This document shows, one piece after another, positions 15,843 through 24,648 of a stretch of 64,000 bases of DNA. The first letter of the stretch is position 1, and every line of letters begins with the position of its first letter. The stretch is from a virus. The position numbers and the translations under genes are program-made. The notes under the pieces are model-generated. The model was given only the letters and a program-made list of their open reading frames with translations. It had not been told where the DNA came from and made no database searches. The stretch lies in the IMG/VR virus record IMGVR_UViG_3300025849_000025, positions 16,100 through 80,099 of that record. The stretch is one strand, 5' to 3'.

Positions 15843-15873
15843 TATAAATACTACATGTATAAGTCTATTTATA
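15843..15873. promoter_or_regulatory. Two opposed late promoters: TATAAATA on + at 15843-15850 (gp4 operon) and on - at 15866-15873 (gp48 operon)
   Basis: Two exact TATAAATA octamers on opposite strands in the 82-bp divergent intergenic region. Confidence 0.8.
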
Positions 15874-15902: not shown

Positions 15903-16361
15903 ATGGCACATAGTGGTAGATTTCGTCCAAAAAACCCCTCTAAGTACAAGGGTGACCCCACAAAGATCATTTATAGGTCTATGTGGGAGTTTAAATTCTT
16001 TAGATATGTGGATATACACCCTGATGTGATATGGTGGCAGTCGGAAGAAGTCGTAGTTCCTTACATGTCTCCTATTGACGGAAGACGCCATAGGTACTAT
16101 CCTGATGTAATTGTCAATAAAAAGATTGGTGATGGTAAGTCTGCAACTGTAATGATTGAAATTAAACCTTATGCACAAACAAGACCACCTGATAGGTCTA
16201 AGAAGAACGCTACCAAGACTGGTAGGATATCAAGGAAGTATTTGAACGAGGTTAAGACTTGGGGTATTAATGACGCTAAATGGAAAGCCGCTAGGAAATT
16301 TTGCGCACAGCGTGGGTGGCAATTTGAAATTATGACGGAAAGAGAACTAGGAATAAAATAA
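15903..16361 (+). CDS. gp4: Head completion nuclease gp4 (TnsA-like)
   Basis: GRFRPKNPSKYKGDPTKIIYRSMWE...WQSEE...HRYYPD...IEIKP...NDAKWKAA. Confidence 0.92.
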   Translation: MAHSGRFRPKNPSKYKGDPTKIIYRSMWEFKFFRYVDIHPDVIWWQSEEVVVPYMSPIDGRRHRYYPDVIVNKKIGDGKSATVMIEIKPYAQTRPPDRSKKNATKTGRISRKYLNEVKTWGINDAKWKAARKFCAQRGWQFEIMTERELGIK

Positions 16362-21732: not shown

Positions 21733-21813
21733 TGGTGTCAGTTAAGGAATTGAACCTTAATCATCCATGATATGACGCCTAGATATCCATTGGATTAGTA
21801 AACCTACCTGACA
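21733..21813 (-). ncRNA. tRNA-like RNA or degenerate tRNA with a CCA end
   Basis: TGTCAG/CTGACA acceptor-like stem plus CCA; T-arm TAAGG-TTCAATT-CCTTA; non-canonical D and anticodon arms; consensus promoter upstream. Confidence 0.55.
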
Positions 21814-21856
21814 TAAGTTCTTAAATAGAATCATTTATTATCATAAGGGATACCCT

Positions 21857-21885
21857 ATTATACCACAGATAGTGATACTTGTCAA
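21857..21885 (-). promoter_or_regulatory. Consensus sigma70 promoter upstream of the tRNA-like element
   Basis: TTGACA-N17-TATAAT with extended TG (TGTGGTATAAT). Confidence 0.75.
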
Positions 21886-21892
21886 GTCTTTT

Positions 21893-22303
21893 TTACTTAT
21901 AATTGATAAATTTATCTGGGCTTCTGAAATTCTTTTTGCGCATAATTGTTTTCATAACAACGTCGAATTCGTCATTACGTCTGTCATATGTAACTGCAAC
22001 TGGAATGTTCAAATCTTTTTGGATGTCTTTAAGAACAGCCTCAGCACCCGCAACATCTTTAATAGACTTGCCTTTCTGTGCATAAACCTTCTTGATGAAA
22101 TCAGCCAATTCTTTAAGGCTAATACAAGGAGTATTACGTTCATCGCCCATACGATCAGCAAAGTGTCGTGTGAAGTTGAAGTCAATATCGTACTTCTTAA
22201 AGAGTTGATCAACAATCTTTTCAAACTGCTTGATCTGTTTCATGCCAATCAAGTCACATGATTTAGCTTCAGCCTCAGCCAAGTGTTGTTTAAAATTTTT
22301 CAT
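21893..22303 (-). CDS. Putative internal head protein; possible BECR/RelE-like RNase fold
   Basis: Capsid-targeting-like N-terminus MKNFKQHLAE; FTRHFADRMGDER and VVMKTIMRK motifs; the fold is inferred. Confidence 0.5.
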   Translation of the reverse strand: MKNFKQHLAEAEAKSCDLIGMKQIKQFEKIVDQLFKKYDIDFNFTRHFADRMGDERNTPCISLKELADFIKKVYAQKGKSIKDVAGAEAVLKDIQKDLNIPVAVTYDRRNDEFDVVMKTIMRKKNFRSPDKFINYK

Positions 22304-22887
22304 TCTTCAAACTCCTTAAGTTTCACACGGATAGCTTTTATCATCTTCCTGTGAGTTCCAGTCAGTGTACGGTTCTTTTCCAATTCATCCATAATCTGAG
22401 TGGTTTGTTTTTTATAATTCGATGCCCATTTTTTAGTCTTTGCTGTGTTCAGATCACTTACGTTGTGAAGACGATCTGCCAACTTAACAACCAAAGCCCA
22501 ACTGCTCATGCTAGACATTTTAGCACTTAGGTAATCTGCTTTACTTGCTTTGAATTCTTTGCTTTGTTCATCAGAAGTCAGTTCTTTAACCATAGAGGCT
22601 ACCAAGCCACCAAACATCTTTGTGATGTCTTCTTGCTCAGTGTCGGTGTCTTCTACTGTATCGTGAAGGTATGCGGCACTGATCAAAGCTTCTATGTTAT
22701 GAGACTTCTTAAACTGCTTTACAATTTTAGCAACTTCTACAGGGTGGGTAATGTAAGACTTGCCATCAGTACGAGTCTGCTTCCTATGAGCATTAGCCGC
22801 AAACCTAATGGCTTTCTGTGATTGCGTCAAGCTTGCACCCTTAGCCTCTGCTAATTGCTCCGTGACGTAATCTTTGAACCTTTTCAT
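22300..22887 (-). CDS. HD-domain small alarmone hydrolase (Mesh1/SpoT-HD-like)
   Basis: AHRKQTRTDGKSYITHP, AYLHDTVEDT, FGGLVASMVKELT, VKLADRLHN; N-terminus MKRFKDYVTEQLAE. Confidence 0.88.
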   Translation of the reverse strand: MKRFKDYVTEQLAEAKGASLTQSQKAIRFAANAHRKQTRTDGKSYITHPVEVAKIVKQFKKSHNIEALISAAYLHDTVEDTDTEQEDITKMFGGLVASMVKELTSDEQSKEFKASKADYLSAKMSSMSSWALVVKLADRLHNVSDLNTAKTKKWASNYKKQTTQIMDELEKNRTLTGTHRKMIKAIRVKLKEFEE

Positions 22888-22890
22888 TTC

Positions 22891-23223
22891 TTATTCCTTG
22901 TAAAGATAGAAGCATTTATCAGCACGTTGAAAGCTGTACCCCTTAATTTGTTTTCCTGCACGTTCATACAGATTAGCACGTTTTTCATCAGTCACATCAA
23001 ACATATACCACTTTGCACGATCAGCCTTAACAAGTTCTACAAAAGCTTTTGTCAGCTTACGATACAGTCCAACAGGGTTAGGTGTATCCCCTTCAATGGT
23101 ATACACCTTGATATGTTCAATGTCACCCATCCATTCGTCTATGTCATTTTTATACATGACGATCTTGTTATCTACTGCTTCAACGCAGTATACAAAACCC
23201 TCATGATCTACTTCTATTTCCAT
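22891..23223 (-). CDS. Hypothetical protein between the synthetase and hydrolase genes
   Basis: 110-aa ORF with its own TTGACA-N17-TATCTT promoter at about 23249-23277. Confidence 0.6.
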   Translation of the reverse strand: MEIEVDHEGFVYCVEAVDNKIVMYKNDIDEWMGDIEHIKVYTIEGDTPNPVGLYRKLTKAFVELVKADRAKWYMFDVTDEKRANLYERAGKQIKGYSFQRADKCFYLYKE

Positions 23224-23285
23224 AACAAATTCTTTCTCTTACTGTAGAAAGATACTCAATGCAACCTTGGGTGTCAAGGTCTTTT

Positions 23286-24146
23286 TTACTTACCCTTCAA
23301 CTTTCTTCGTGTCTGACGATCCATTTGCGACAATCCAGAAGTCTTTATATACTTTGATTTCTGCTTATCAACATTGATTCCTGCACCACCACCTCTGGCG
23401 TTGCCTTTGTCAAATGCTCTCTTGCCGTGACGCAATAGTTTTTGAGTTTCTTTAGAACCTTTGATTTCGTCTGATGCTGATCTGAAGTCATCATACTGAC
23501 CACCCGCAATTTTCTTTGCAGAATAAAGCTTCTTAGTCATCAATTGAATTTCTGTGTTCACACCATCAACGTCAACTGAAAAGTGTACAGAACCGTAATA
23601 GCCAAACTGTTTGTCGCCACCACGTTCTTTTGGGTCAAACTCTGATACTGATTTAAATGCTTTGAAAATGTTTTTTGAAACAACACCGATATCTTTTTCG
23701 TCGTTTACTAGGATTGAACCACGCAACCAATCATTCATCTTTGATGGGTCTTTACCACGGTCAACAGTCTTGTTTACGAATGCCCTAAGCTTCTTAACAT
23801 CAACCATAATCTTCGCGTTCTGAACACCCTTGAGCGCAGTCTTCAAACCAGATTCGTATTTCTTGAGGCGGTCTTTAATGATAGGCTCATACTTTTGGTA
23901 GAGCGCAACGACTTTTTCTTTGTCGTTCTTACCAGTAAAATCTTTGATTTTTTCATCAGCCCAAAATGTCTTTTTGGCGGGCTTCAATTTTTTGCTAAGT
24001 CTTTTAATTAAGGAGTCGTCTAGGTTTTCAATCAAACCATTTTCTGCAAGAAGCTCTAAACAGATGCTTTCTAGGATTGCATCAATGTTTTCAATGTCGC
24101 CCCATTCGGCTGAATTCTCGTTAATAAAGCTTTTAAAGTTTAGCAT
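23286..24146 (-). CDS. RelA/SpoT-family small alarmone synthetase-like nucleotidyltransferase
   Basis: VKKLRAFVNK, NDWLRGSIL, GYYGSVH and EIQLMT are divergent SYNTH motifs; start reassigned to ATG 24146 (MLNFKSFINE; GAGGA RBS; late promoter upstream). Confidence 0.75.
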   Translation of the reverse strand: MLNFKSFINENSAEWGDIENIDAILESICLELLAENGLIENLDDSLIKRLSKKLKPAKKTFWADEKIKDFTGKNDKEKVVALYQKYEPIIKDRLKKYESGLKTALKGVQNAKIMVDVKKLRAFVNKTVDRGKDPSKMNDWLRGSILVNDEKDIGVVSKNIFKAFKSVSEFDPKERGGDKQFGYYGSVHFSVDVDGVNTEIQLMTKKLYSAKKIAGGQYDDFRSASDEIKGSKETQKLLRHGKRAFDKGNARGGGAGINVDKQKSKYIKTSGLSQMDRQTRRKLKGK

Positions 24147-24178
24147 ATCGTCCTCATGTGTTCTACTTAGTATAGTGT

Positions 24179-24186
24179 TATTTATA
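24179..24186 (-). promoter_or_regulatory. T4-type late promoter for the alarmone synthetase cluster
   Basis: Exact TATAAATA 33 nt upstream of ATG 24146. Confidence 0.75.
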
Positions 24187-24213: not shown

Positions 24214-24648
24214 TTAAGCCGCCATGGCTTCTTGTTGAGTGCAAACGTAAGGCTTATTCCACTTGCCAACATTGATATCTACATAAAAATCAACATGGTG
24301 ATAATCTGACATTAGATCAGACTCGTCAAACCATTCGTCACCCTTCATGGCTTCTACAAGCTCATTGAAGAAATTCTTTGCCTCATCATCCCAATGAGAG
24401 TCGATGTGATATGTGTTGACTTGAATATACTTATTGGTGTTTTCGTAGTAAGGCATGCCACGACGATCAGCAATCTCTTTGTTTTTTGCGTTCTGCATAC
24501 CAACGAAATCGAAATGCGAAGCAGAGATGTTAACAACAAGTGACATATGGTGTTTGATACCAATAGTACCTTTAACGCCATACTTTTTAAGAACTGCTTT
24601 GATATTAGGAGCTAGTTGCTTTTTACGTTCTTGTGAAATATAAGCCAT
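24214..24648 (-). CDS. Hypothetical phage early protein
   Basis: 144-aa ORF directly downstream of a promoter cassette. Confidence 0.7.
   Translation of the reverse strand: MAYISQERKKQLAPNIKAVLKKYGVKGTIGIKHHMSLVVNISASHFDFVGMQNAKNKEIADRRGMPYYENTNKYIQVNTYHIDSHWDDEAKNFFNELVEAMKGDEWFDESDLMSDYHHVDFYVDINVGKWNKPYVCTQQEAMAA

Follow-up and report, generated by a model that had tools for sequence, protein, structure and literature searches.

The gene cluster and its phage

We analyzed a gene cluster at positions 21,893 to 24,186 of a 64,000-nucleotide (nt) stretch of viral DNA (IMG/VR virus record IMGVR_UViG_3300025849_000025, positions 16,100 to 80,099 of that record), which we call the window. An original prediction, made from the letters of the DNA, had described the cluster as a candidate system of a capsid-packaged alarmone synthetase, an alarmone hydrolase, and a putative RNase, headed by a late promoter. 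Every element that it claimed was found at the position it had given, on the minus strand, including the late promoter TATAAATA at 24186..24179. The three genes that it listed are present, but it overlooked a fourth one, which encodes a protein of 110 amino acids (aa) at 23223..22891. The cluster has the following features:

24179..24186, minus strand: T4-type late promoter TATAAATA, 33 nt upstream of the synthetase ATG
23286..24146, minus strand: RelA/SpoT homologue (RSH) synthetase, 286 aa, with the leader MLNFKSFINE
24117..24146, minus strand: leader of the synthetase, capsid-targeting-like, ending in I-N-E
23249..23277, minus strand: sigma-70-like promoter TTGACA-17-TATCTT, a consensus match in the gap before the 110-aa gene
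22891..23223, minus strand: acidic 110-aa protein without a leader, conserved partner of the synthetase
22300..22887, minus strand: Mesh1-like HD_4 hydrolase, 195 aa, with the leader MKRFKDYVTE
21893..22303, minus strand: basic 136-aa protein with the leader MKNFKQHLAE, a candidate endoribonuclease

The four minus-strand genes lie head to tail between a block of gp4, gp2, and baseplate genes and a run of small genes, and the start of the 136-aa gene overlaps the stop of the hydrolase gene (ATGA). The longest open reading frame (ORF) for the synthetase starts at 24272; the alignment of homologues favors the MLNFKSFINE start at 24146. The TATAAATA upstream of the synthetase is kept at the same position in the relatives L003 and L005. 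Seven of the 13 copies of this motif on the contig lie 9 to 55 nt before gene starts, including those of baseplate and head-closure genes, and the late sigma factor gp55 is encoded on the same contig. The TTGACA of the sigma-70-like promoter before the 110-aa gene is also kept in L003 and L005, and its −10 element is partly kept. This predicted internal promoter may allow the partner to be expressed independently of the synthetase. Elsewhere in the window, two divergent TATAAATA late promoters occupy positions 15843 to 15873, between a tail-tube-cap baseplate gene (minus strand) and gp4 (plus strand). A variant of the late-promoter core, ATAAATA, precedes the RelA/SpoT gene of Sinorhizobium phage phiM12 (L002:3690-3760, upstream of SmphiM12_365), and by this motif the untagged synthetase of phiM12 may likewise be a late gene.

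The window comes from an 80-kb viral contig that CheckV rated as 37% complete. The contig carries T4-superfamily core genes (gp4 head closure, gp2 DNA end protector, baseplate hub, gp55, and a helicase), and its DNA polymerase is cyanophage-like, with 43% identity to those of the nearest cultured phages. A near-identity DNA search against cultured phages gave no match. The phage is an uncultured marine member of the T4 superfamily that is distantly related to T4.

The N-terminal leader in the window and in relatives

The original prediction had pointed out that the synthetase (MLNFKSFINE), the hydrolase (MKRFKDYVTE), and the 136-aa protein (MKNFKQHLAE) begin with similar decapeptides. We expressed this likeness as the pattern M[KL].[FY][KQ]..[ILV].E and applied it to all candidate starts on the 80-kb contig with at least 40 codons downstream. 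Exactly 3 of the 2,234 starts matched, and these are the three cluster genes; none of the other 2,231 fits the pattern, so the resemblance noted earlier is real and is not a common trait of proteins encoded on this contig. Structural and replication genes of the contig, which are highly expressed, carry no leader. The tagged proteins are basic, with isoelectric points (pI) of 9.3 to 9.6, and the untagged 110-aa protein has a pI of 5.25.

The T4 prohead protease gp21 cleaves at sites with the consensus (L/I)-x-E. The leaders of the synthetase (I-N-E) and the 136-aa protein (L-A-E) end in canonical sites, and that of the hydrolase ends in V-T-E. The N terminus of T4 internal protein ipIII, MKTYQEFIAE, fits the leader pattern, and ipI has the first seven positions in common (MKTFKEF), with its first aliphatic-x-Glu site, I-T-E, further on (both read from NC_000866).

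The codons differ among the three leaders while the peptide is kept, and therefore selection acts on the peptide. The positions kept with varying codons are Phe4, position 7 (aromatic or His), position 8 (aliphatic), and Glu10. In the alignment, the leader is retained on synthetase homologues of 43 to 95% identity, and across homologues at 40 to 95% identity it is retained on unrelated proteins. It is present on almost all of the 120 homologues listed for the 136-aa protein, which has 201 close homologues, and MKxFK-type leaders stand on many related HD hydrolases.

We also looked for the leader in PANV1, a cultured Paraglaciecola phage (MW805361; 151 kb), using a back-translated pattern and, as a control, the reversed pattern. 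The leader pattern gave seven sites, all of them at annotated gene starts, and the reversed control gave none. Five of the tagged genes, gp41, gp42, gp45, gp46, and gp48, form one cluster, which includes a homologue of the 136-aa protein and an S-adenosylmethionine (SAM)-lyase-family protein; the other two are gp31 and the RelA/SpoT gene gp92. The gp21 family (Peptidase_S77) is encoded both by PANV1 (8.4e-46) and by Melnitz (9.1e-33), which also has tagged homologues. The PANV1 gene gp48 (L013:6835-7413; MW805361 26618-27196) starts with MKTFSEFLGE and belongs to the S-adenosylmethionine lyase family PF23780 (E value, 4.7e-18); from its sequence, it is a candidate injected anti-restriction enzyme.

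The leader thus resembles N termini of T4 internal proteins, is conserved among homologues, marks a small set of genes, and occurs in relatives that encode a gp21-type protease. These results support the view, proposed in the original prediction, that the decapeptides behave, as far as sequence comparison can tell, as T4-type capsid-targeting sequences.

The gene order is the same in L003 and L005, but the synthetase, hydrolase, and 136-aa genes are dispersed in PANV1. In L005, a relative at 64% identity, the cluster is the same except for an additional tagged SprT-like gene between the hydrolase and the 136-aa gene (L005:3197-3958; SprT-like metalloprotease, leader MKSFKSHLAE, PF10263, E value of 1.7e-8). 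The cargo therefore changes behind a constant leader, and the cluster is hyperplastic, as L005 and PANV1 illustrate.

The four encoded proteins

The synthetase gave a Pfam RelA_SpoT match with an E value of 7e-4 and 20.2 bits, which is below the gathering cutoff of 27, and it matched phrog_37685 among the PHROGs; two of its homologues carry a precomputed PF04607 match. A PDB sequence search with the synthetase profile returned only chance-level matches (E > 0.1). The AlphaFold2 (AF2) model has a mean predicted local distance difference test (pLDDT) score of 74, with a core at 80 to 93, and Foldseek matched it at a probability of 1.0 to CapRel, RelQ, Tas1, RelP, an exported Streptomyces small alarmone synthetase, and long Rel (E values of about 1e-4; template modeling scores of 0.35 to 0.59; CapRel at the top). 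K118, K126, R130, D139, R142, Y184, S186, H188, E199, and Q201 are invariant in 11 homologues, and the catalytic residues align with the motifs of Mycobacterium tuberculosis Rel, in an alignment that is itself weak (E value, 0.31). The original prediction had reported that the usual HxxY motif lacks its His. That reading was mistaken: the His is present in a G-Y-x-S-x-H motif (GYYGSVH, H188), as are the catalytic D139 and E199, the latter in an E199-x-Q201 motif. Its assignment of the protein to the RelA/SpoT-like synthetases was correct, given the RSH fold at a Foldseek probability of 1.0 and the invariant catalytic residues; the protein is a divergent RSH-family member with intact catalytic residues.

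The synthetase is laid out as a leader, an N-terminal stretch, a core at about residues 110 to 250, and a basic tail. Residues 11 to 60 are net negative and contain conserved aliphatic-x-Glu (L-x-E) sites at 26, 35, and 40, and the final 35 residues form a basic segment with predicted disorder. A propeptide longer than the leader is therefore possible. The original prediction had proposed that a propeptide keeps the enzyme inactive until capsid maturation; we consider control by a dedicated partner more likely, and the L-x-E sites between residues 26 and 40 leave room for a propeptide as well. By analogy, we rank (pp)pApp synthesis with ATP drain first among the candidate substrates and activities, because (pp)pApp is what FaRel, Tas1, and Apk2 make, the systems in which a protein inhibitor and a hydrolase occur together; pyrophosphorylation of the tRNA 3′-CCA end and (p)ppGpp synthesis follow.

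The untagged 110-aa protein is probably the real partner of the synthetase and a candidate for its antitoxin or immunity protein. Its homologues are as narrowly distributed as those of the synthetase and occur on the same contigs. Counted by lineage, it directly follows synthetase homologues in 4 to 5 other groups of phages. In a search of 665 ORFs, the 110-aa profile found the ORF directly downstream of a synthetase homologue in phiM12 (2e-8) and in the metagenomic phages L008 (4e-5), L009 (2e-4), and L010 (0.08). In PANV1, L006, and L011, an HD hydrolase adjoins the synthetase instead, and both neighbors are found together only in the lineage of the window. When the complex of the synthetase core and the 110-aa protein was predicted, the ipSAE was 0.32 versus 0.12 for the best control, a result that the tool rates as weak support, with runs agreeing in at least 3% of contacts and a partner pLDDT of at least 75. 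Of 80 solved complexes, 58 pass the mark used, as do 2 of 110 mismatched pairs; 7 of the 80 complexes and both mismatches that pass do so at 0.60 or under. A protein atlas search with the 110-aa protein returned only unnamed viral clusters, and we regard it as a new candidate immunity family.

The hydrolase matched Pfam HD_4 (PF13328) with an E value of 4.9e-20 and 72.3 bits, against a cutoff of 27.2. It matched human MESH1/HDDC3 (3nr1) with an E value of 2.8e-22 and the solved (p)ppApp hydrolase 7smg with an E value of 6.9e-5, and its HP, HD..ED, and KLADR..N motifs are invariant. By sequence, the protein is a clear Mesh1/SpoT-type HD_4 enzyme, in agreement with the original prediction. We examined the best 80 related loci in IMG/VR for a synthetase within a 4-kb range. 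A synthetase was found at three, two of which belong to close relatives of the window, and the 136-aa gene was found at five, while many tagged HD proteins stand alone. The rarity of synthetase neighbors and the many tagged HD proteins indicate that the tagged hydrolase is a free-standing cargo cassette. The hydrolase had also been a candidate for the primary partner of the synthetase, and we rejected this because of its distribution (3 of 80 loci).

The 136-aa protein matched phrog_23027 and phrog_14518. Its domain has 201 close homologues, compared with 26 for the synthetase, and occurs in 1,255 representative clusters of a large library, mostly at the C terminus of proteins of 400 to 1,300 aa. 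A Pfam scan of ten long homologues found cytidylyltransferase-like, DUF5824, and zeta-toxin/AAA_33 P-loop kinase domains, and HNH once. The long homologues P0162 to P0303 resemble a large uncharacterized family of multi-enzyme phage proteins.

The AF2 model of the 136-aa protein (pLDDT of 88) has two helices followed by an antiparallel sheet. A structure search with an exhaustive aligner placed RelE first (Z scores of 6.4 and 6.3) and T4 RegB third (Z score of 5.4), with ParE, HigB, YafQ, and YoeB at Z scores of 4 to 5. Nine of the top ten matches fall in the RelE/ParE superfamily at Z scores of 5.0 to 6.4, which is the middling range of this tool, and Foldseek gave weak matches to RelE, HigB, and ParE (best E value, 0.055). 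The conserved motifs are T-x-H-F-x-D-R...R-N and K-T-x-M-R-K-K, and the candidate catalytic residues H47, R51, R56, N57, K118, R122, and K123 are conserved. A Pfam scan of all 26 members of the alignment found no DUF4258 and no consistent family, and a PDB sequence search with the 136-aa profile found chance-level matches only. The putative RNase of the original prediction thus receives weak backing from the fold of the model (RelE and RegB) but none from sequence families, and we describe the protein, on the basis of this model, as probably an RNase with a candidate RelE/RegB fold.

A probable cargo cluster and the competing explanations

We think it probable that this is a cluster of internal-protein cargo, in which leaders would direct three unrelated enzymes to the prohead, from which they would be injected, and in which the synthetase is paired with an untagged immunity protein. 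The analysis shows the sequence features, folds, conservation, and gene neighborhoods, and we infer the packaging, cleavage, and injection as well as the enzyme activities and their targets. Late in infection, transcription from TATAAATA would yield three basic proteins with a ten-residue leader of the capsid-targeting type. The leader would bring them to the scaffolding core of the prohead, where a gp21-type protease would remove it after Glu10; in the synthetase, the protease might also cut at the conserved L-x-E sites up to residue 40. Together with the DNA, the mature enzymes would enter the next host, where they would act before any phage gene is expressed. The synthetase would be a divergent RelA/SpoT-type pyrophosphokinase of the toxic small-alarmone-synthetase (toxSAS) kind, and in the producing cell the untagged acidic 110-aa partner would hold it in check and stay behind, like an immunity protein. 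The hydrolase, as an independent cassette, would most likely strip host (p)ppGpp or (p)ppApp or reverse toxSAS-type defense, and it may also serve as product-level immunity for the synthetase. The third cargo, also independent, would be a very widespread domain of RelE/RegB fold, probably an RNase.

Several observations weigh against this cargo explanation. Co-injection of the synthetase and a hydrolase that may remove its product is a puzzle and does not obviously make sense. The hydrolase leader ends in V-T-E rather than in the classical L/I-x-E. The contig is a fragment that includes no head genes and no prohead protease, and a gp21-type enzyme is assumed for this phage by analogy with its relatives. 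From the internal sigma-70-like promoter, the hydrolase and the 136-aa protein could be expressed early and inside the cell. The sequence of the synthetase has diverged strongly (below the Pfam cutoff and at E > 0.1 in the PDB search), so its activity and substrate are putative. The predicted binding of the partner is rated weak, and the PDB profile search detected no likeness of the 110-aa protein to IapK or Tis1 above chance level. Finally, the distant synthetase homologues of phiM12 and L006 to L011 have no clear leader, and the module can therefore work without packaging.

The last point leads to an intracellular explanation, in which the genes form an unpackaged toxin-antitoxin or superinfection-exclusion module, like Phrann gp29/gp30 or the FaRel operons, that tunes host metabolism or excludes other phages, and the shared N termini are a relic of cassette recombination. 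We hold this to be unlikely. Phage toxSAS toxin-antitoxin pairs are established (PMC7229694), the internal sigma-70-like promoter would suit such a module, and pairs of synthetase and partner (phiM12 and L008 to L010) or of synthetase and HD hydrolase (L006 and L011) exist without a clear leader. A relic would decay, however, and this peptide is kept with different codons, at 40 to 95% identity, on three unrelated proteins; the leader is absent from the partner, stands behind a conserved late promoter, and in PANV1 marks only a small gene set. The same selection on the peptide, at Phe4, positions 7 and 8, and Glu10 with varying codons, makes it very improbable that the decapeptide has some other role on cytoplasmic enzymes, such as an AT-rich initiation enhancer, a degradation tag, or another localization tag. 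The A/T-rich leader codons do favor initiation, but the contig's structural and replication genes lack the leader although they are highly expressed, and it closely matches the experimentally defined T4 targeting sequences (PMC3012670).

The three enzymes might instead be one integrated, co-adapted system that serves a single pathway, such as pyrophosphorylated tRNA ends or alarmones, and acts in a fixed order after injection. The genes are adjacent, the hydrolase and 136-aa genes are coupled by their ATGA overlap, the order recurs in L003 and L005, synthetase and hydrolase adjoin each other in PANV1, L006, and L011 also, and a tRNA-like gene adjoins the cluster. Against this stand the distributions: of the 80 HD loci, 3 have a synthetase and 5 have a 136-aa gene, many tagged HD proteins are alone, and the 136-aa family is far wider than the synthetase (201 versus 26 close homologues) and is mostly fused to nucleotidyltransferase, kinase, or DUF5824 domains. 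In addition, the SprT-like cassette splits the hydrolase from the 136-aa gene in L005, and the three genes are dispersed in PANV1. We therefore see little chance that this account is correct, and the notion of one co-evolving system that ran through the original prediction is not supported, given the 3 of 80 HD loci with a synthetase and the 1,255 clusters of a 136-aa domain that is mostly fused elsewhere. The original prediction is in this sense partly supported: its packaging idea gained strength and its single three-part system lost it.

A bolder form of the cargo explanation, which we put forward with considerable doubt, is a timed takeover by proteins alone, before phage transcription, through an injected, immunity-controlled RSH toxin, an alarmone hydrolase, and an RNase. 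A burst of synthetase activity would shut off the host through (pp)pApp and ATP drain or through pyrophosphorylation of tRNA 3′ ends. The hydrolase would have two tasks, to wipe out host alarmone or toxSAS defense signals and to stop the burst, and the RNase would degrade host mRNA. The 110-aa protein, left in the producing cell, would represent a new family of immunity proteins.

Relation to known systems

The closest precedent for a leader-addressed cargo is T4 itself. Its internal proteins are a diverse defense-related set with only the capsid-targeting sequence in common (PMC3012670). IPI, IPII, IPIII, and Alt, which gp21 processes and which leave the T4 capsid together with the DNA, share with the window proteins a ten-residue leader running to an aliphatic-x-Glu site and a small, basic character. 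In both phages, the cargo genes form a variable cluster close to tRNA genes and gp2/gp4; the window cluster lies within a few kilobases of gp4, gp2, and the tRNA site, as does T4 ipI. Unlike the T4 cargo, the putative window cargo consists of RelA/SpoT-family enzymes and a RelE-fold protein, one of which has a dedicated untagged partner.

For the enzymes, a close comparison is Apk2-IapK-Aph1, found among the MuF polymorphic toxins of temperate phages, in which the toxin makes (p)ppApp and there are two modes of immunity (PMC12226406). The order is the same as in the window, with an RSH-fold pyrophosphokinase toxin, a small protein inhibitor, and an HD hydrolase, and in both the toxin is attached to a device for delivery from inside the head, which in the window would be the candidate leader. 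Unlike the MuF toxins, the window would use a cleavable T4-type leader with no MuF fusion, in a lytic T4-type phage, and unlike in the Aph1 modules, its hydrolase is closer to Mesh1 than to 7smg and is itself tagged. The type VI secretion pair Tas1-Tis1 is also related in part: Tas1 is among the structural matches of the synthetase, and the 110-aa protein has no sequence likeness to Tis1 or to any solved immunity protein.

The toxSAS systems (FaRel, FaRel2, PhRel, PhRel2, and CapRel) share with the window a single-domain RSH synthetase and a tightly linked downstream neutralizer. Their neutralizer is a binding protein or an alarmone hydrolase, FaRel operons carry both, and phage small alarmone hydrolases (SAHs) neutralize all tested toxSASs (PMC7229694). 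The stand-alone phage SAHs PaSpo of SSU5 and PbcSpo of PVP-SE1 (PMC7229694) are the comparators for the window hydrolase. Unlike the toxSASs, the window synthetase has a late promoter and a capsid-targeting-like leader, its partner belongs to an undescribed family, and its similarity to solved RSH proteins is marginal. The 136-aa model aligns with RelE at a root mean square deviation of 2.9 over 77 residues and with T4 RegB over 123 residues. Unlike the RelE toxins, this domain is often C-terminal in proteins of 400 to 1,300 aa, has no sequence similarity to them, and has no evident antitoxin.

Alarmone-family enzymes are known to regulate bacterial stress, to act as toxins, either secreted or in toxin-antitoxin pairs, and to serve as effectors against phages, and phages encode hydrolases that potentially disarm them. 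The T4 internal proteins and Alt, the MuF-fused (p)ppApp toxins, and the stand-alone phage SAHs are already known. Our literature search found no paper that links a capsid-targeting leader, or packaging, with RelA/SpoT-family enzymes. If the cargo explanation is true, both sides of alarmone chemistry would be injected as ready-made weapons that act before gene expression, and the principle of the T4 internal proteins and Alt would extend to second-messenger and tRNA-end chemistry. A cleavable leader would also achieve, independently and by a second route, what the MuF polymorphic toxins achieve by fusion. The cultured PANV1 with its seven tagged genes, the candidate immunity family, and the widespread RelE-like domain offer objects for tests, and marine metagenomes could be searched with the leader for phage effectors that are injected.

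Two minor observations concern the surroundings of the cluster. The first 7 to 8 kb of the contig, to the left of the window (G000:C1 1-7500), gave only short, odd-looking plus-strand ORFs with a simple ORF caller, which probably reflects a very long gene on the minus strand that extends past the end of the contig. Directly after the cluster, at window positions 21733 to 21885 on the minus strand, lies a perfect sigma-70 promoter (TTGACA-17-TATAAT with TG). Next comes a roughly 80-nt element whose fold resembles a cloverleaf and which has a canonical T arm and an encoded CCA end. Neither ARAGORN nor Rfam called this element, and its fold is no stabler than those of shuffled sequences. A degenerate or variant tRNA and a stable RNA like T4 rnaC/rnaD are its possible identities, and in L005 five ordinary tRNA genes occupy its position.

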